Source: Candidatus Poribacteria bacterium (lineage in GTDB: Bacteria; Poribacteria; WGA-4E; WGA-3G). From it: a stretch of 64,000 nt of DNA. The notes beneath the pieces are model-generated. The model saw nothing but the letters and a program-made list of their open reading frames with translations. It was not told the origin of the DNA and did not search any database. Made by a program: the position numbers and the translations under genes. Below are positions 12,771-21,248 of the stretch, one piece after another. Each line of letters begins with the position of its first letter. The first letter of the stretch is position 1. The stretch lies in assembly GCA_965198235.1 (NCBI GenBank), contig OZ240248.1, forward strand, positions 352,001 to 416,000, in the 5' to 3' direction.

Positions 12771-13550
12771 TTACCTGTCCTGGACTTTGATGCTTGCCCA
12801 GGTGACGGCGAGTTTCTCTGAAGCGTCAACAGCGAGTATGCGGAGCAATCCTTGATTCATAATGTCCTTGATATCACCTTCGCTCAATGCGACACTGAAA
12901 ACCCCCGCCTCATCAATAACGCCGGGCAGATTGAAGTCGTTGATGTCACCGCCAATGGTAAGCGGGTGTTCGGTGACGGCAGGTTTGTCGGAGTGTGTCG
13001 CTGTACCTTCAAGAATTCCATCTATATATACGCTACTGACTTTTAGATCGTACGTGCCAGCAATGTGATGCCATTTTCCGTCGGCCACCGAGGTTTTTGA
13101 TTCTATCACCTGATTCTCAGCCCCGGGCCCCGTCATGTGGGCATGGTGTACACGACCGTCAGGACTTACCCAAAATCCGTAATGACCTGCATGTCCGGGA
13201 TTTCTTTTGATAATAACACCACTCCACTTTCCTGGGGGCTCTGGGGCTTTCACCCAGGCGACCAAGCTGTAGGTTTCCAGGTTCAAGTCATCATGATGTT
13301 CAACTTCAACCATGGCACTCCCGTCAAACTCAAGTGCCGTGTCAAACTTGCCTGTGACCCATTTGACCTTGTCCGGAATTTTCCCATCATGCCCATTTCC
13401 AGAAAAATCTCCGGCTATATCACCCTTACCCTCATCAAACGTCCAGATCGCCACTATAGTTTGAGGATCTATCTCAGCATAATTTGAGCCAACCCACATG
13501 CCAAGAGCGATCAGCGAAAACACACCAATCAGCAAAGATTTGACCTTCAT
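12771..13550 (-). CDS. Secreted LamG/ConA-like domain protein
   Basis: Signal peptide, WTFDEGKG, WHHIAGTYD, GVIDE; tail LAVDASEKLAVTWASIK; AGGAGG before ATG 13550. Confidence 0.9.
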   Translation of the reverse strand: MKVKSLLIGVFSLIALGMWVGSNYAEIDPQTIVAIWTFDEGKGDIAGDFSGNGHDGKIPDKVKWVTGKFDTALEFDGSAMVEVEHHDDLNLETYSLVAWVKAPEPPGKWSGVIIKRNPGHAGHYGFWVSPDGRVHHAHMTGPGAENQVIESKTSVADGKWHHIAGTYDLKVSSVYIDGILEGTATHSDKPAVTEHPLTIGGDINDFNLPGVIDEAGVFSVALSEGDIKDIMNQGLLRILAVDASEKLAVTWASIKVQDR

Positions 13551-13742
13551 CTTATATCCTCCTACTGAGGTGTCATCAGACACCGCATCGATCATTGAAG
13601 GGTTTTGTCTAACTAATAATGCGGGCGGTAAACCCACTTAACCGCGCTGCACCACAATCAACTATAAATGATAACATATAGTAGCAATACCTTCGCCAAA
13701 AAAGTTGAATATAGTAGATTCTGTAATTACTTATACATTTTT

Positions 13743-13900
13743 GTGATAGACCCAAGCCTAAAGACTTGGGCTTCTGCAAATATTAAGCAGAAGCATTTGT
13801 GGAATTGAGAAGCGGACTACACGCTTCAACGGAGCAGCCGACAATCCTGTTGAACAAAACAATCGGTCTTACGACTCCTAACCCAAAGGAAGCTACCCCT
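13743..13900 (-). ncRNA. TnpB omega-RNA (reRNA) scaffold; boundaries approximate
   Basis: Overlaps the tnpB 3' end; GGAG..GTAAGAC..TGAAGC..AAGCCC core shared with the other two elements. Confidence 0.65.
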
Positions 13901-14994
13901 TCCTTAAGAATGTTCAGAGCAGCGTTCTCGTCGCGGTCGAGGTGTGTTCCACAACTTGGACACGTCCATTCCCTGTCTGAGAGCGTGAGGCTTTGATTTT
14001 TATGTCCACACACATAACAGCACTTTGTGGTCGGCGACCACCGATTGATTTTCAGCACAGACCGTATCCGCTTTTTGCTTTGGTGTTTGAGTTTCTGCAG
14101 AAACTCACCGAAGGCGAGGTCAGACACCTGTTTACCCCAAAGTTTTTTCATACCCTGAAGGTTCAAATCTTCAAAGAACAGGATGTCAAACTGACGACAG
14201 AGTTTTATCGCAAGTTTCCAGTGGTGGTCTATCCTTTGATTCGCCGTTTTCTTATGGATACGGACAACGTTCTTACGTTCTCGTTCCTGATTGTTAGAAC
14301 CTTTGACTTTATGAGAATATACCTTTTGTGCAGTTGCCAACTTTTCAGCGTTGAGTTTGTAGAACATTGGCGATATTTCTCGGTGTCCGCTACTGGTAGT
14401 CAGGAAGTCTTTGATTCCAAAGTCGAACCCTTCAGCTTGACCCGTCTTGGGTTCATATCTGACTTCACTATAATCTTCAGTGAGCGTGATATACATATCT
14501 CCAAGTGCGTCTCTTGTAACCTGAACGCGTTTGATTTTTCCCTGTATCGGGCGGTGCAGCGCGAACCGATACCAACGTCCGTTGAGTCGGATTTTATACG
14601 TCGGGTGATTTCGCTTATGTTTGTGTTTATCGGAAACTTTTTCTATCGCAATCTGTTCGCCAGAGAACGTCATGCCTCTATGTTTCTGACACTTCTTGAA
14701 CTTCGGGTGACCTTTGCCAAGGGTTTTCATTTCTTTGAAACTCTGTGCCAAGCGTTTGAGTATGTTTTGAAGACTCCACGAGTATGGGATATTCCAATGT
14801 TGGTATTTCTCAAGCTTTTTCAGCCGCGTCAAATGTTTCGACATCTTGGAATACGACAAGTCCTTACCATACCGACGGTAATATCGCCGAGACAACGCAT
14901 TGAAATGATTCCGAACAACGCCACAGATATTCAGGTCATCCTGGAGATGCTTCAAAGAGGTATCACGAAAAAGTTTATGTGTGGTGTTTCGCAT
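13783..14994 (-). CDS. tnpB: RNA-guided endonuclease TnpB
   Basis: RuvC triad GFDFG / FFEDL / DRDENAA intact; CYVC...CPSC zinc finger. Confidence 0.95.
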   Translation of the reverse strand: MRNTTHKLFRDTSLKHLQDDLNICGVVRNHFNALSRRYYRRYGKDLSYSKMSKHLTRLKKLEKYQHWNIPYSWSLQNILKRLAQSFKEMKTLGKGHPKFKKCQKHRGMTFSGEQIAIEKVSDKHKHKRNHPTYKIRLNGRWYRFALHRPIQGKIKRVQVTRDALGDMYITLTEDYSEVRYEPKTGQAEGFDFGIKDFLTTSSGHREISPMFYKLNAEKLATAQKVYSHKVKGSNNQERERKNVVRIHKKTANQRIDHHWKLAIKLCRQFDILFFEDLNLQGMKKLWGKQVSDLAFGEFLQKLKHQSKKRIRSVLKINRWSPTTKCCYVCGHKNQSLTLSDREWTCPSCGTHLDRDENAALNILKEGVASFGLGVVRPIVLFNRIVGCSVEACSPLLNSTNASA

Positions 14995-14998
14995 GGTC

Positions 14999-15087
14999 TA
15001 TCAAGTCTCAAGTCTTTAACCCCTATGTAGTGGGTAGGCAGACACGTCACCAAGAGGTGACGCTACATATGTCTGCCAACTTGATAC
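14999..15087 (-). ncRNA. Structured, pseudoknotted 5' leader RNA of tnpB
   Basis: Helices covary with the copy at 20107-20188. Confidence 0.7.
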
Positions 15088-15092
15088 TCTTA

Positions 15093-15121
15093 ATTATACC
15101 ACATTTTTAGACCAAAGTCAA
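15093..15121 (-). promoter_or_regulatory. Sigma70-type promoter for tnpB
   Basis: TTGACT-N17-TATAAT on the minus strand. Confidence 0.75.
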
Positions 15122-15430
15122 GGAAAAATGAACGCTTGGGTCCTTTCCAAAAAGGCGGTGTCTACATCCCAAACCTGAAGGATTGGGTTTTGACACCGAA
15201 GTTAGATAAGATTTCAGAGCAAACTTCTGAGAAACCTTCTGCAAAAACCGCCTAAAATCCAGTCACCGTATGGGTTTACGGCTTTTTCAGAAATCCATCA
15301 CTTTTCAGATTTACTCTGAATACTCTGAAACGCGTGCTATTTCCTTTCCAGAATTTTTGTGTAATGCGGTTGCACGCATTCCCAACTTCTGTTAAAATAG
15401 TAGGTAAGCGAAAGGAGTTCTAAACATTCT

Positions 15431-15634
15431 ATGAAAACTGCACAGGCCACAAACACAGCCAACGAAAAACCGAGGCAACGCCTTACTTTTCCTACCTATA
15501 ATGAAGAGGACATCCTTAACTGGGATGCTGCTATAGTCACCCCACCGCCGCGTCAATCCGGCACAATACGGGTTAAGTTGAAATATAAGGGACGCAGTAA
15601 ACCAATTTCCGTTGAAAACTTTTGGGAGGAGTAG
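15431..15634 (+). CDS. Small hypothetical protein
   Basis: 67-aa ORF after AAGGAG; ends just before the next gene. Confidence 0.55.
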   Translation: MKTAQATNTANEKPRQRLTFPTYNEEDILNWDAAIVTPPPRQSGTIRVKLKYKGRSKPISVENFWEE

Positions 15635-15665
15635 GTAAATGATTAATACAGTGAAGGAGACTGCA

Positions 15666-16160
15666 ATGAAATTAATCATGACTTTGGTTGTAATGCTTCT
15701 GTTATTTACCGCGCCTGCGTTCAGCGAACTCACCTCAGCAGACATTAATAAGATCCGATTAATTGTCAAGGAAGAAATTGAGGCATCCGAGACACGCATG
15801 AAAGAATACGCTGACGCATCCGAGACGCGAATGCAGAAACATTTTGAGGCATCCGAGACACGAATGCAGAAATACCTTGAGGCATCCGAGACACGCATGA
15901 AAGACCATGTCTCTGAACAAATTAAAGCGGTCAACATCACAATCACAGAAATGGACAAACGTCTGAACCAGATTTTTACGTTGGTTATTGCTTTGGTAGC
16001 TTTCATTGCCGTGGTCATCGGAATACCTCAGATCCTCGTTGCACTACAACGAAGAGATGTCCGCTCACAAAACGAAAAAATTGAGGCACAGCAACAACAG
16101 ATCGAAGCATTGGAAAGAGAAATGGAAGCGTATAGGCAAGACCGCATGGTCGGACCTTAA
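15666..16160 (+). CDS. Exported membrane-anchored coiled-coil protein with 11-aa repeats
   Basis: Signal peptide, four ASETRM-containing repeats, TM helix, C-terminal coiled coil; AAGGAG before ATG 15666. Confidence 0.75.
   Translation: MKLIMTLVVMLLLFTAPAFSELTSADINKIRLIVKEEIEASETRMKEYADASETRMQKHFEASETRMQKYLEASETRMKDHVSEQIKAVNITITEMDKRLNQIFTLVIALVAFIAVVIGIPQILVALQRRDVRSQNEKIEAQQQQIEALEREMEAYRQDRMVGP
15780..15911 (+). repeat. Coding tandem repeat, 4 x 33 bp
   Basis: GA(G/C)GCATCCGAGAC(A/G)CG(C/A)ATG every 33 nt. Confidence 0.9.
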
Positions 16161-16166
16161 AAAGTT

Positions 16167-16691
16167 ATGGAAATCGCCGATCTCAAACAACGCATTGCAC
16201 AAGGTGAAAACACCACGACCGAATTCAAAGAGAGCTTTGATCAGGAGGCTATTGAGACCGCTGAACCGACTCACAACCCTGTAAACCCCACTTTGAGTCA
16301 ATTGATGTTTGATGTCGGTTTCATTGAACGGTACGGTGCCGGCATCAGGATGATGAAAAGGCTATCTGAGGAATGGGGAAACAAAGAACCGCGTTATGTG
16401 TTTCACCCGCTTGAAACCAAAATCATCTTTGATTCACCGATTCAAGAGACAACTTTCATAGAGATCGATGATATTTCAGAACAGTTGAACGAGCGTCAAA
16501 AGAATGCCTTGTTTCACGTCCAAAAGAACGGGCAAATTGCGACAAGAGAATACGCGGAGATCAACCATATTTCGCCCAGGACTGCCTATACCGAGCTCAA
16601 GGATTTAACAGACAAAGGGCTATTGACTGCAGTAGGAAAGGGAAGAGGAATTAGGTACGTCCGAAAAGTGGACGATCAGGTAACCGATTAA
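16167..16691 (+). pseudogene. Internally deleted AlbA_2 (Schlafen-like)-HATPase-wHTH gene
   Basis: AlbA_2 start (IAQGENTTTEFKES) joined directly to NPTLSQLMFDVGFIERYGAGI and a C-terminal wHTH. Confidence 0.7.
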
Positions 16692-16743
16692 TTGCGTGAT
16701 TAATTGCGTGATTAACTACGCGAACATAAGAAGTAGGACCCAC

Positions 16744-18054
16744 ATGTCGGAGCAAACGATCACAGGCATTACCAAGATAGCAGTAAAGGGTTTCAAGTCG
16801 ATAGCGGAGGAGTGCGCGATTGACATCCGTCCGTTGACAATCCTTGCCGGCGCGAACAGTTCCGGGAAATCCAGCATCATGCAACCGCTCTTGATGCTAA
16901 AGCAGACGCTGGAGGCACCCTATGATCCAGGACCCCTAAAAATTGACGGACCGAACGTTCAATTTACTGAGGCAGCACAATTTTTATCGATGTTACCCCG
17001 TGAAAAGAGAACAGATCGTTTTCAGGTTACGGTTGCAAGTACGCACATTGAAAGCAGGGGTACTGAACGCTCCATTTCAGTAGAGACAACTTTCAGAGAG
17101 GGAAAGGGCGGAATTGAAATTGTTAAAATGACAATTAAGGCAAAGTCTAAACCTGACGAACCACTGCGTACCATGCATTTCACCTTGACCCCTGAGATGT
17201 CCGTTGAAGAAATTAAGTCCTTGAGTAACCAGGGTTTGATACTCAAGGGTCACGATTCTGTCAAGCGTTCACGCTGTTTTTTACGTTTGGAGTCTCAACA
17301 TAGTCGTGTGCTCTTTAACACTACCGCTTACCTTGAGTCCTGTATTTTCAACAGCATTCACCTACCTGGATTACGCGGTAGCCCAGAACGCACCTATAAA
17401 TTCACCAGCACCGGTCCCCGGTATTCCGGCACGTTTGAAAATTATGCTGCGAGCGTCATTCACGAGTGGCAGGAGATGAAAGACAAACGCCTGAAAATGG
17501 TAGTTGATGCACTCTATACGCTTGGATTGACGGGAAAAGTGGGCACCCAAAAAGTCGGTGATATCGGTATTGAACTTCAAGTCGGTCGTCTCCGCCATGA
17601 TCGAAACAATGAAACAGATATGGTCAACATCACCGATGTGGGATTCGGGGTGTCCCAAGTCCTACCTGTTTTAGTCGCCGTGATTGTCGCGGAACCCGGG
17701 CAGTTAGTCTATCTCGAACAACCCGAACTGCACCTCCATCCCCGCGCACAGGTCGCCTTAGCGCATGTGCTGGCAGATGCGGCGAAACGGGGGGTGCGCG
17801 TTGTCGCTGAGACGCATAGTTCACTGTTGCTTTTGGGGGTTCAAACGCTTATTGCCGAAGGAGATCTCTCGCCAGAGTTAGTCAAACTGCACTGGTTCAC
17901 ACGGCGCGAAGATGGCGTAACCGAAGTTAACAGTGCCGATGTGGATGAGGCGGGGGCTTACGGCGAGTGGCCCGAAGATTTTGCAGATGTCAGTCTCCGC
18001 GCTCAAAGTGGTTACATAAAGGCAGCACGGTCGCGTTTCGTTGAAGGGACATAG
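16744..18054 (+). CDS. ABC-type ATPase (AAA_15/AAA_21, DUF3696-like tail)
   Basis: GANSSGKS, VGFGVSQVLP, LEQPELHLHP, ETHS, WPEDFAD. Confidence 0.88.
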   Translation: MSEQTITGITKIAVKGFKSIAEECAIDIRPLTILAGANSSGKSSIMQPLLMLKQTLEAPYDPGPLKIDGPNVQFTEAAQFLSMLPREKRTDRFQVTVASTHIESRGTERSISVETTFREGKGGIEIVKMTIKAKSKPDEPLRTMHFTLTPEMSVEEIKSLSNQGLILKGHDSVKRSRCFLRLESQHSRVLFNTTAYLESCIFNSIHLPGLRGSPERTYKFTSTGPRYSGTFENYAASVIHEWQEMKDKRLKMVVDALYTLGLTGKVGTQKVGDIGIELQVGRLRHDRNNETDMVNITDVGFGVSQVLPVLVAVIVAEPGQLVYLEQPELHLHPRAQVALAHVLADAAKRGVRVVAETHSSLLLLGVQTLIAEGDLSPELVKLHWFTRREDGVTEVNSADVDEAGAYGEWPEDFADVSLRAQSGYIKAARSRFVEGT

Positions 18055-18055
18055 T

Positions 18056-18589
18056 ATGCACTCAAGGGGTTTAAAACGACTCGTTGTGAACGCCTCGGTC
18101 GCTCGTGCTGCTGGTGGTGCAGGGGCAACTGAGCTGGTATCAATCAGTTGCACCGAATTCCTTGAGACCTTTCGAGACGAATCCTCACACCACGTCGTGA
18201 TGACATTTGAATTATCCGAAGAGTGGGATGAGCATCAATCGAATTTTGCAGCCGAATGGTTAGGAAATATGATTGCCACAAGGAGATTCCACTATATCAA
18301 GCTTCCTCAAAATAGAGTGTTGTATGACGAAATTGAAGCAACAGCGGTTCGGGAAGCAGACATCAACGCGATGCTAAAGGATTTTCACCTCCTCGGAGCA
18401 GCACTTGCAACTGATCAAACCATTGTTTCGCTTGATGAAACCATCCGCGGGCTTTTCGCACGCGCCTCACAACAGGTCAATGAAATCAGGCACATCATTT
18501 GGGTGAATCCAGATCGGATGGCAGAACATCCCATCACGTGGCTCCAAAACGGCGCACCCCCTGAAGTACATCGTAGGCTTTCTGCCTGA
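18056..18589 (+). CDS. PIN-like domain protein
   Basis: LVVNASV...EEW...KDFHLLGAAL...IVSLD pattern; starts 1 nt after the ATPase stop. Confidence 0.65.
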   Translation: MHSRGLKRLVVNASVARAAGGAGATELVSISCTEFLETFRDESSHHVVMTFELSEEWDEHQSNFAAEWLGNMIATRRFHYIKLPQNRVLYDEIEATAVREADINAMLKDFHLLGAALATDQTIVSLDETIRGLFARASQQVNEIRHIIWVNPDRMAEHPITWLQNGAPPEVHRRLSA

Positions 18590-18657
18590 TTCTACATTCA
18601 TTGTTGGAATCGTGAGCACAGCTCGCTCCTACAGGGCGCGTAGGAATTGATGTCCCC

Positions 18658-19530
18658 TTACCCTTGCCAATTCAGATCGATGCTGGCGTACCCACGCGTA
18701 TACTGCTGAAAATGTGGTGGCAAGTCCGCCAAGAACTGCTTGCCCTCGTCTGGAATCTCCCACGGAATATTGATGTGGTGATCCCGACTCCGAAAACCGA
18801 CACCGCACGACAACCGAATTTCATCAATCTGGTTCGGGAACGCGCCGTGATACGTCCGATGCGCAAACACAATCATGTCACCCGGATTTGTGAAAAGTGG
18901 CACCAAGCCCGGAATATCGAAACCCACATAAGCCTTCTCTTCTTCACCGATCTTATAAAAGGAGCGTCTGTCCGCTGTCAGGTTGAAGCCTTCGGGGCCC
19001 TCCCAATTCTCCACGTGGGAACCCTCAATTACGCACAGCCCACCGTGTTCCGGACGAGAACCCGTCAAGTAGAACCATTTGCCCGAGGGCCACAACCCGC
19101 GGTTCAGTACATCACCCGAATTTTTCGGTGCACCTGTCGAGAATCCGCACCAGTCGGTGTGCCATGCAACGGGTTGAGATCCGGGCATCCGAATGATAGC
19201 GGCAGATCGGTGAAGCGTCAATTTCTTTGTACCAATCAGGTGGCGGTGGATTTTCATAAAGGGTTCGTATCCCATCAGCTGCCACGCTCCGGGTCCCGAC
19301 TCAATCCAAACGTGTCGGGTGTGACTCTGCCCATGCTCTAATTCTCTTTTCGGATCTGTGCCATCGAAGACCGCCTGCTTTAAACTGTCAACTAAGTCAG
19401 GAGGTAGGACATCCTTGATAATCGCAAAACCGTGTGCCTCAAGGCATTCGGACACGAGGGAAAGTTGATCGGTTTCAAACTCGTAAGTGTAGCCGAGTTC
19501 AGGTTTTTGAATCTCTAAATATTCTTTCAT
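18658..19530 (-). CDS. Phytanoyl-CoA dioxygenase (PhyH) family protein
   Basis: WHTD, GSH, PGDMIVF..RTYHG. Confidence 0.88.
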   Translation of the reverse strand: MKEYLEIQKPELGYTYEFETDQLSLVSECLEAHGFAIIKDVLPPDLVDSLKQAVFDGTDPKRELEHGQSHTRHVWIESGPGAWQLMGYEPFMKIHRHLIGTKKLTLHRSAAIIRMPGSQPVAWHTDWCGFSTGAPKNSGDVLNRGLWPSGKWFYLTGSRPEHGGLCVIEGSHVENWEGPEGFNLTADRRSFYKIGEEEKAYVGFDIPGLVPLFTNPGDMIVFAHRTYHGAFPNQIDEIRLSCGVGFRSRDHHINIPWEIPDEGKQFLADLPPHFQQYTRGYASIDLNWQG

Positions 19531-19714
19531 AAGTGAACTCCTATGTTTTCCTCCGTGTAAAACAAGTCTGGTTGCCTATGTTGTGATAGCACCCAACGCC
19601 TAAAGGCGTGGGCTTCGGTTTCATAGCGACTGCGGTTTTCTCAGAGAGTCCACCGTCTTACTGTCGCTCCACCAGAGAGCTCTTATCCTGTATCAGAACA
19701 GGTTTATGGTCTCC

Positions 19715-20093
19715 TTAGACCGCTACCCCAGCTCGCAAAATGTTTATCGCAGCATTTATATCTCTATCGTGAGACGTGCTACAACTTGGACAAGTCCAAT
19801 ACCTGTCCCTAAGTGTGAGGGTTTCGTTCTTATATTCGCAGACGTGGCAGACTTTCGTTGTCGCCTGCCACCGTCTCGCCTTGGCGAGTGTTTTTCCGTA
19901 TTTAGCAGATACCCATTGAAGTATCCTGACGAACTCACTGAAAGCAAGGTCGGAGATTTTTCGACCCCACAGGCGTTTCATACCCTCAAGATTCAGGGTT
20001 TCTATGGACTTGCACACCGTGCAAATCGTCTATTAGGTTGCCAATCTGTATTAGATTCGACTGGTGATATAACTCATATTTTTCCGTTTTCAT
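19715..20093 (-). pseudogene. tnpB: tnpB remnant (N-terminal stub joined out of frame to the C-terminal RuvC/Zn finger part)
   Basis: MKTEKYELYHQ... then ETLNLEGMKRLWGRKISDLAF...CHVC...CPSC...DRDINAA. Confidence 0.85.
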
Positions 20094-20106
20094 GGGAGAC
20101 CTTCAC

Positions 20107-20188
20107 GTATCACGCTTTTATCCCCTGTCAAGTGGGAGGCAAGCACATAGCCTTGCGACTATGCTTGACATGCTTGCCTACGTGATAC
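20107..20188 (-). ncRNA. Second copy of the structured tnpB leader RNA
   Basis: Same helix architecture as 14999-15087, with a GCAA tetraloop. Confidence 0.7.
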
Positions 20189-20450
20189 TATTAATTATAT
20201 TACATTTTTAGGTAGAAGTCAAGTCTTTGGCGGTCTTATATCCCAAACCTAAAGGATTCGGCTTTACGACCGAAGTCCCGTAAATGCTGAATGTTGTCGG
20301 CATTCTAATAGATATTCACTGTTTCGTCAATCCCAATTTTTGCTCGGAAACGAAATGTCCCTACCCAATAAGTTATGCGCTTGCACTAATTGCCAAGTTT
20401 TGTTAAAATATTATTACTTTAGACAAGTCCGAGCGAAAAGCAGATAAACT

Positions 20451-21248
20451 ATGGCAGACTATACTGTGAGTTCAGGAAACGTTTTTAAAGATTTGGAACC
20501 TCTTTCCCCTGACGAAAGATTGGCGAAAGCGAAATTGGCATATAAAATCAATTGTCTGATTGCTGATCGGGATATGACGCAAAAGGAAGCTTCGGAAGTG
20601 ACGGAGTCAGTCCAACGCATCACACATACGGACACAAATTATCCAGCAGGATTGGAGCAGTATTTAAAAACAGAAACGCCGGAAACGATTTGGGTGCACG
20701 GGAATATCGGCTTATTACCCGGGCAGAACACTTCCTTAAAAGGAGATCTCTGGGCACTTTTCTGCTCCAGCAAATGTCCGGGAGAGATTATCCTGAAAGC
20801 ACACGATTTAGCACAGAAATTTAAGGAAATAGGTATTCCAACGATCAGTGGGTATCACTCCCCAGTTGAGCAGGAATGCCTACGTGTCTTACTGCGTGGC
20901 TCACAACCAATTCTCTTATGTCCGGCACGGAGCATCGAAAACATGCGACACAAACCAGCGTGGAAAGACGCATTAGCCGAAGAGCGTCTATTAATCCTAT
21001 CTATTTTTGGGAGTCACCATCGGCGATCAACAGCGGCATTGGCGAATCAACGCAACGCTTTTGTCGCAGCACTTGCGGACAAAATTTGTATAGCGCACGC
21101 TGCAGAGGATAGCAAAACCCTGGAATTCGCGCAGATGGTGTTGGCGTGGGGTAAGCCCGTTTTCACCTTTGAAACACCAGCAAACAAGGCACTTTTTCAA
21201 CTTGGGGCGCGACGGATGGAACCGTCCCTAAATGTAAAGCAAGGATAA
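20451..21248 (+). CDS. DprA/SMF (SLOG)-like protein fused to a truncated XRE antitoxin N-terminus
   Basis: SSGNVFKDL...AKAKLA..IN..I....MTQKEA, then YP..L, ALFCSSKCPG, ISGYHSPVE, RNAFVAALAD. Confidence 0.75.
   Translation: MADYTVSSGNVFKDLEPLSPDERLAKAKLAYKINCLIADRDMTQKEASEVTESVQRITHTDTNYPAGLEQYLKTETPETIWVHGNIGLLPGQNTSLKGDLWALFCSSKCPGEIILKAHDLAQKFKEIGIPTISGYHSPVEQECLRVLLRGSQPILLCPARSIENMRHKPAWKDALAEERLLILSIFGSHHRRSTAALANQRNAFVAALADKICIAHAAEDSKTLEFAQMVLAWGKPVFTFETPANKALFQLGARRMEPSLNVKQG

Follow-up and report, generated by a model that had tools for sequence, protein, structure and literature searches.

TnpB, from which Cas12 descends, is a compact genome editor, and to our knowledge little has been described on the natural control of its production. 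RNA structures that precede genes elsewhere offer several points of comparison. The 5' untranslated region (5'UTR) of IS200 is a plain hairpin hiding the Shine-Dalgarno sequence, and the fold-back inhibition of IS10 and IS50 acts mainly on read-through transcripts. In the hok mRNA and in the leader of the MS2 maturation gene, the extreme 5' end pairs with a distant start region, and alternative or metastable folds set a window for translation. The THF-I riboswitch combines a three-way junction with a pseudoknot that joins a loop to an internal loop. The omega-RNA (reRNA) of TnpB itself contains a pseudoknot.

According to the accessible parts of the published accounts of IS200, secondary structure in the tnpA mRNA suppresses transposition, and the antisense RNA art200 accompanies the stem-loop of the tnpA 5'UTR (PMC4513863, PMC5435999). 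The leader described here, found in a 64,000-nt stretch of Candidatus Poribacteria DNA (the window), belongs to an element of the same transposon superfamily, in which such a leader can yield RNAs, as the available text has it (PMC5435999). The IS200 5'UTR governs the tnpA transposase, whereas our leader precedes tnpB. The IS200 structure is also not known to have the three-way junction, pseudoknot and decoy strand that we find or propose in the tnpB leader. No antisense promoter was seen within 13600-15400 of the window. The fold-back of IS10 and IS50 and the 5'UTR of ISPpu9 (PMC8450116) resemble the proposed action of the leader, in that translation is limited when the start region pairs with a strand further upstream in the mRNA, but they act on transposase genes. 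Moreover, an extension of the closing helix (P0) that would be specific to read-through transcripts is not conserved in the tnpB leaders: bases upstream of P0 can pair with the distal repeat in copies of the AAGU type and not in those of the ACGU or AGGU types, and fold-back inhibition of this kind was rejected.

With translational riboswitches such as THF-I the leader shares a junction with a long-range pseudoknot and a domain closed by a helix that has an alternative partner at the start region. It differs in its link to a transposon nuclease rather than to metabolism, in having no Rfam match and in lacking a core conserved across families, since the junctions and P1 differ in the family of genome G056 and in leaders L053, L098, L109 and L131. 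The hok and MS2 leaders are unrelated to it in sequence and architecture; by analogy with them, a kinetic mechanism is a possibility. Like the leader, the omega-RNA is structured and encoded in the same element, but it lies at the 3' end, overlapping the tnpB stop codon and the right end. The leader fold precedes the ATG and lies some 1250 nt away from the right end, to which no sequence relation was found, so an initial sequence-only reading of the window was right to treat it as a separate RNA. In the part of the literature available to us, TnpB processes its own mRNA. Another means of holding down tnpB expression in this superfamily is Arc, which, in the accessible portion of a preprint, represses promoters of the IS605 family (bioRxiv 10.64898/2026.09.24.754181); that is a protein on promoter DNA, in contrast to an RNA fold that would act after transcription. 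Full-text literature searches turned up neither an account of a structured leader preceding tnpB nor any paper in which Poribacteria and TnpB both occur. The leader would be a new form of a familiar type of regulator, that of structured leaders serving insertion-sequence genes.

Two tnpB elements and their pseudoknotted leaders

The minus strand of the window carries two IS200/IS605-type elements in which tnpB is present and tnpA absent (Table 1). We infer the exact ends of element 1 from the sequence common to the copies in the source genome, which begins after TTATC and stops at ...GGGTCTATCAC, and from the contigs of other copies, which part from element 1 at 15200 and 13743. The TTATC flank is probably the target and TAM motif, by analogy with TTAC of IS608 and TTGAT of ISDra2. 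Left-end flanks differ by clade, with TTATC (15205-15209) in element 1 and its relatives and TTTAC (20280-20284) in element 2 and its relatives, which suggests different target and TAM motifs. The right end of element 1 bears the same type of hairpin as the left end (13751-13770), and the omega-RNA scaffold should end at 13743..13770, judging from the published TnpB model in so far as its text is available (PMC10278001).

The tnpB gene of element 1 is intact. Its product matches ISDra2 TnpB (8EXA; E 2.6e-44) and has three RuvC motifs, GFDFG, FEDLN and DRDENA. A Shine-Dalgarno sequence is absent before the tnpB ATG and present before neighbouring genes; in most copies CC stands 0-3 nt before the start codon (ACCAUG, CCCAUG or UCCAUG; for example 14995-14999 in the window). 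An open frame of 345 aa antisense to tnpB (13993-15030, plus strand) is taken to be a chance ORF. Element 2, which the sequence-only reading had counted as a second tnpB element, holds an internal-deletion remnant of the gene: of its TnpB the last 100 aa alone survive as an ORF (19715-20017). A short reading frame follows its start codon at 20093, and the deletion has spared the promoter, the leader with its pseudoknot, and the right end. Because of this deletion, an alignment of the two whole elements is uninformative at the 5' end.

Table 1. Features of the two elements and their leaders, in window coordinates; ends, promoters and functional roles are predictions.
Feature	Position	Strand	Remarks
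Element 1, tnpB-only IS200/IS605-type (IS1341-like), about 1462 bp	13743..15204	-	predicted left end to right end
TTATC flank adjoining left end of element 1	15205..15209	-	constant in 8 copies, differing further upstream
Left-end subterminal hairpin, CCCAA-N-TTGGG type	15168..15187	-	direct reading
Right-end hairpin and end ...GGGUCUAUCAC	13743..13770	-	right end constant among copies
tnpB of element 1, 403 aa, intact	13783..14994	-	ATG 14994; Pfam OrfB_IS605, Cas12f1-like_TNB
Promoter TTGACT-17-TATAAT with TG before -10	15093..15121	-	11/12 match
P0 5' strand GUAUCAAGU	15079..15087	-	begins 5 nt past the -10 box, at about the predicted +1; proposed anti-start-region strand
P1 GGCAGACA/UGUCUGCC	15077-15070 with 15044-15037	-	encloses bulge and P2 (15037..15077)
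7-nt bulge UAUGUAG between P1 and P2	15063-15069	-	
P2 hairpin, loop UCUU	15045-15062	-	
P3 hairpin CCC-A-CUACAUA-GGG	15021..15034	-	loop strand 15024-15030 pairs with bulge (pseudoknot)
Junction GUUAAAG between P3 and P0	15014..15020	-	conserved in main family, different in divergent families
Proximal 3' partner of P0, ACUUGA	15008..15013	-	proposed decoy of the start region
Distal 3' partner of P0, ACUUGAUA	14999..15006	-	ends 4 nt before ATG
Element 2, internally deleted derivative, second tnpB clade, flank TTTAC	19583..20279	-	
Element 2 promoter TTGACT-17-TATAAT	20194..20222	-	direct reading
Element 2 leader	20103..20188	-	model match G000:C1:372098-372192, 92.5 bits
Element 2 P0 5' strand	20180-20188	-	
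Element 2 P1	20171-20178 with 20138-20145	-	
Element 2 bulge	20164-20170	-	
Element 2 P2	20146-20163	-	loop GCAA
Element 2 P3	20123-20136	-	loop strand 20126-20132
Element 2 proximal strand	20107-20114	-	
Element 2 distal strand	20103-20108	-	
Element 2 ATG	20091-20093	-	

In both elements the promoter TTGACT-N17-TATAAT stands directly before the fold, as the sequence-only reading had noted. In each, a subterminal left-end hairpin lies upstream of the promoter, and the fold begins five bases beyond the -10 box. The promoter recurs in nearly all copies in the source genome, and that of element 1 is the sole promoter-like site within 13600-15400. All helices drawn by that reading, together with the complementarity between the P3 loop and the bulge, were found again in both leaders; the GNRA loop it mentioned occurs in copy 2 (GCAA) and not in copy 1 (UCUU). 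The two leaders have folding energies of -38.7 and -37.8 kcal/mol (z -4.2 against shuffled controls). The antisense strand likewise folds well below its shuffles (z -3.6 to -4.8), so that folding energy is uninformative on strand.

Comparison between copies gives a sharper picture. In 23 distinct leaders of the source genome, 95.9% of cells are paired and 21/34 pairs have changed on both sides; when the partners are slid by 1-3 columns, pairing falls to 29-45%. RNAalifold, unguided, recovered P0, P1, P2 and P3. The covariation holds in a larger alignment of 99 distinct leaders from many genomes (95.6% of cells paired, 33/34 pairs covarying), which was fitted to the nested helices and is biased towards them. 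The pseudoknot, which lay outside that search model, covaries in 7/7 pairs with 95.3% of cells paired. In neither set did 500 column shuffles once attain the observed values. Pairing amounts to 98.5-100% in P1, where variants covary, and to 98.7% in P2, where 7/7 pairs covary. The two strands of the pseudoknot are fully complementary over 7 nt in 84 of 98 gap-free rows, among which 46 different 7-mers are represented; the remaining rows show one mismatch (eight rows) or at least two (six rows). In the source genome, where 25/26 copies could be parsed, 17 different 7-mers occur, and the pairing is perfectly Watson-Crick in 22 copies, includes one G-U in one and has one mismatch in two identical copies. 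In two leaders (L081:2370-2489 and L146:478-599) the tip of P2 is extended by an inserted hairpin of some 25-30 nt, so the P2 loop appears to tolerate expansions, like peripheral elements of structured RNAs.

These alignments also indicate the strand. In the 99-leader set there are 163 G-U cells as against 36 A-C cells, which points to the tnpB sense strand and upholds the argument from G-U pairs made in the sequence-only reading; pairing is 95.6% on that strand and would be 91.8% on the other. The leaders form a real and strongly supported pseudoknotted RNA family.

We compared rates of change among 30 parsed copies, using pairs whose third codon positions differ by 0.3-0.4. Divergence was 0.10 in P1, 0.36 in the pseudoknot, 0.32 in P2, 0.33 in the P0 5' strand and 0.41 in the promoter spacer. 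P1 and the junctions are constrained within the main family. Drift in P2, P0 and the pseudoknot is close to neutral in rate, yet their strands remain complementary. A hypervariable barcode under diversifying selection was rejected, as the pseudoknot diverges about as much as the promoter spacer and the third codon positions. Further pairings were also considered and set aside. A third copy of the 7-nt pseudoknot sequence, as a partner in trans or at long range, has no consistent place from -300 to +2000 around 25 source-genome copies. In copy 1 the leader tail has nine bases complementary to the right end or omega-RNA end, with no covariation, and this pairing was rejected because the right end is constant (GGGTCTATCAC) while the tail varies.

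The sequence-only reading had called for a comparison with Rfam. Rfam 15 comprises 4227 models, including riboswitches, ribozymes, IS605-orfB motifs and HEARO; it gave no relevant match at E <= 10 in 13000-21000, none at the gathering score over the whole window and none at E <= 10 on seven leaders alone. IS605-orfB-I (RF03065) had no match in the source genome, in a search in which the control sequence also matched nowhere. A motif named Poribacteria-1 was reportedly among those of Weinberg 2017, and could be the same fold as the leader; if it is in Rfam 15, it gave no match. The main text of Weinberg 2017 does not describe Poribacteria-1, and RF03030, RF03020, RF03009 and RF03015 are families other than this motif.

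Distribution and probable mobility of the promoter-leader cassette

A leader profile found 26 copies in the source genome, and a covariance model found the same 26. Every one directly precedes a tnpB homologue or its remnants, so that the position of the fold and its link to tnpB are directly observed. Measured against copy 1, these homologues group into clades at 76-100%, about 40% and about 30% identity. Promoter and leader hardly differ between TnpB clades that share only 29-40% identity, and they have therefore probably been exchanged between element families. The leader is intact where tnpB is broken, in copy 2 and at C1:1097472.

Several individual loci depart from this pattern. In the lone autonomous tnpA-tnpB copy, a tnpB homologue that is 44% identical (G000:C1:118729-119775) follows the C-terminal end of an IS200-type tnpA, whose stop codon its own start overlaps, and the promoter-leader cassette is absent. 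A full-length tnpB that is 77% identical (G000:C1:4993640-4994845) keeps the left-end hairpin, with promoter and leader absent, and looks like a cassette deletion. At G000:C1:4604098-4604820 a leader-bearing element adjoins a fragment of another tnpB family (38% identical), and one element has likely inserted into another. Three copies (tnpB starts 2107003, 2575576 and 5120916 of G000:C1) have a palindrome of about 50-90 nt (CGGAAAG...CTTTCCG type) some 100-160 nt upstream of tnpB; it splits the -35 region between repeated GACTT flanks and looks like a miniature element inserted in the promoter.

Beyond the source genome, the closest tnpB loci are those of Candidatus Poribacteria. The model matches the sense strand just before the tnpB start in 62/65 Poribacteria loci, missing L118, L132 and L144, and in 0/15 tnpB loci of other phyla. 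Plain folding of the regions upstream of tnpB in those phyla, where start-codon calls are unreliable, showed nothing similar, and viral contigs gave no exact match to the core pattern. Among sampled Poribacteria genomes 93/151 have a match, with more than 1100 matches overall, these counts being samples taken with a model biased to the sequence of the main family. When the source genome is omitted, matches occur in 56/56 other sampled genomes of its own genus, 86/99 of its own family, 6/26 of a second family and 0/25 of seven others. In the second family (genome G056) the sequences of P1, P3 and the junction differ and the layout, including the pseudoknot, is the same. The hosts, uncultivated Poribacteria symbionts that dwell in sponges, are the sole known source of the leader.

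Two registers of the closing helix

The sequence-only reading was correct that a helix closes the domain, but drew it in the distal register for copy 1 and in the proximal register for copy 2. The discrepancy arises because the 3' strand of P0 is tandemly duplicated (ACUUGA-G-ACUUGAUA in copy 1, CGUGAUAC-GUGAA in copy 2) and both registers exist in both copies, a duplication that had been overlooked. Both 3' strands co-vary with the P0 5' strand over at least seven sequence types. In the 23 source-genome leaders the proximal register is 90.6% paired with 7/9 pairs covarying, and the distal register is 80.7% paired with 6/9 pairs covarying. A count of ungapped sites of 6 bp or more that can partner the P0 5' strand gives exactly two in 77/95 distinct leaders and two or more in 86/95; when the 5' strands were permuted among copies of another type, 29% had exactly two. 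The tandem layout is kept in the divergent G056 family, which has a quite different P1.

The distal site bears on a possible occlusion of the IS200 type. In five divergent leaders (L053, L098, L109, L131 and L144) it contains the AUG, and in L098 the start region is duplicated in the proximal partner. In the main family it mostly ends 3-7 nt before the AUG, the automatic start-codon call being wrong for part of the rows. Occlusion is plausible rather than certain, since in these leaders the distal helix does not reach the AUG and a Shine-Dalgarno sequence that it could mask is absent. Blocking one site or the other gives an energy difference between the registers of -6.6 to +2.0 kcal/mol in the 23 source-genome copies, with a median of -0.8 kcal/mol (interquartile range -3.1 to +2.1) in 76 other distinct leaders. 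By these energies, which leave out the pseudoknot and tertiary contacts, the registers are predicted to be about isoenergetic.

A single study supplied four metatranscriptome runs that contain the element. Among their contigs, X2 record 16 (14987-15192) and X1 record 8 (15049-15209) match the window exactly and extend over the leader; contigs from these RNA libraries also span sequence upstream of the promoter, transcript ends, strand and level are not readable from them, and DNA may be present. Joints that bypass the leader occur at low depth and were given no interpretation. Summed contig depth over the four libraries, a poor measure that sums many copies, peaks at 13722-13904, which is the tnpB 3' end and right end and the expected place of the omega-RNA.

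We lean modestly towards the view that the leader acts in cis on the tnpB mRNA, burying its 5' end and gating translation by letting a decoy and the start region compete for one anti-start strand. From the comparison of sequences we infer where transcription starts, how translation and stability are affected and which way the switch works. The leader and its strong promoter would together make up one mobile cassette of non-autonomous, tnpB-only IS200/IS605-type elements. Transcription would begin at about the first base of P0, so that the 5' end of the mRNA would be buried in a helix and likely protected against decay. Three strands would then compete: the 5'-terminal anti-start strand, the proximal decoy and the distal start region. 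Pairing of the P0 5' strand with the decoy would close the domain and leave the start region free (ON), and pairing with the distal segment would bury it (OFF). The pseudoknotted domain of P1, the 7-nt bulge, P2 and P3 could hold the ON register or serve as a platform for a factor.

Gating is favoured by the place of the fold, which stands between a near-consensus promoter and the ATG in all source-genome copies and in nearly all Poribacteria tnpB loci. It is also favoured by the three-way covariation, the conserved tandem layout, the AUG within the distal partner of some leaders and the nearly equal energies of the registers. The lack of a Shine-Dalgarno sequence before tnpB, the tnpA-tnpB copy without a leader and the constraint on P1 and the junctions point the same way. 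Two considerations temper the proposal. In the modelled ON register the structured domain ends about 10 nt before the AUG and might itself hinder ribosomes, and an equilibrium of about 1:1 would by itself shift expression about two-fold at most. Of the three readings offered at the outset, a translational regulator is the best supported, by virtue of two covarying 3' partners of which the distal one lies at or over the start codon, a stronger ground than the one first given; its effect on translation would follow from that layout.

It is conceivable, if unlikely, that the pseudoknotted domain is also a sensor, with TnpB, the omega-RNA complex or a cellular signal binding to it and shifting the poised two-register helix. 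If so, the transposon would tune the synthesis of its own RNA-guided nuclease after transcription, by means of a natural RNA switch dedicated to an OMEGA/TnpB nuclease and exchanged as a portable cassette between TnpB clades 29-40% identical.

Alternative readings and meaning

The leader could instead be a pure mRNA stabiliser, in which the 5' helix and pseudoknotted domain shield the tnpB mRNA and omega-RNA precursor from decay that depends on the 5' end (RppH, RNase E, RNase J) and the second 3' strand is mere redundancy. This corresponds to the 5' nuclease shield of the sequence-only reading and is compatible with a P0 that starts at about the predicted +1 in both window copies, with a 5' end that is paired in either register and with conservation of shape rather than sequence across families. 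Stem-loops at the 5' terminus are known stabilisers, as in ompA. A simple hairpin would suffice for that task, however, and neither the two covarying partner sites in 77/95 leaders nor the overlap of the distal partner with the AUG in several subfamilies would be explained. We therefore hold stabilisation alone to be unlikely; protection might well accompany gating.

Slightly less likely still is a switch that senses an effector, whether a small molecule, an ion, temperature, TnpB or a host protein, which would act on the three-way junction and pseudoknot and shift the registers. A closing helix that competes with the start region is the layout of translational riboswitches, the near-isoenergetic registers look poised, and within the main family P1 and the junction nucleotides are strongly conserved. 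That conservation does not extend to the G056 family or the L053 subfamily, unlike what is expected of a ligand pocket, and the leader is linked to tnpB alone and has no Rfam match.

It is improbable that the fold gives rise to a separate RNA acting in trans, be it a small RNA processed from the leader or a second RNA partner of TnpB, as the sequence-only reading had also suggested. Leaders that stay intact in elements with a broken tnpB (copy 2, C1:1097472) would suit such a role, as would the processed regulatory RNAs of the IS200 tnpA 5'UTR, in the available text of that report (PMC5435999). No terminator follows the fold, though, complementarity between the leader and the rest of the element, right end included, follows no consistent pattern, one leader serves TnpB clades 29-40% identical, and 26/26 source-genome copies are fused to the tnpB start; the suggestion of a second RNA component of TnpB finds no support. 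Marginally more improbable again is a processing element, either a new self-cleaving ribozyme or a tRNA-like RNase P substrate that trims read-through transcripts to a defined 5' end. Three helices round a junction with a tertiary pairing of loop and bulge, placed at the border of a mobile element, are in keeping with it; against it, neither ribozyme nor tRNA models matched (Rfam 15; ARAGORN, which found no tRNA-like element in 14900-15250), there is no universally conserved core, and the transcript is predicted to start at the helix itself.

Very improbable is a single-stranded DNA structure of the transposon top strand serving TnpA-mediated transposition: IS200/IS605 elements do move as single-stranded DNA, and covariation cannot separate the two if, as in IS608, top strand and mRNA are identical in sequence. 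Against it stand a fold that begins where +1 is predicted for a consensus promoter, an alternative helix that takes in the start codon, the abundance of G-T wobbles (163 cells) and the absence of the fold from the autonomous tnpA-tnpB copy.

Gating of translation remains the reading that we favour, and the two-register closing helix points to it for TnpB. The leader family is absent from Rfam 15, has no description in the literature searched and is a candidate new Rfam family. It may also constitute a portable expression-control cassette. That Arc represses tnpB promoters, in the portion of that preprint available to us, shows that the control of tnpB expression is a current question (bioRxiv 10.64898/2026.09.24.754181). 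The tnpB leader would provide a clean system for the post-transcriptional control of a transposon nuclease. In hundreds of small Poribacteria transposons, a folded RNA of about 90 bases in front of tnpB probably sets the amount of the nuclease that is made.
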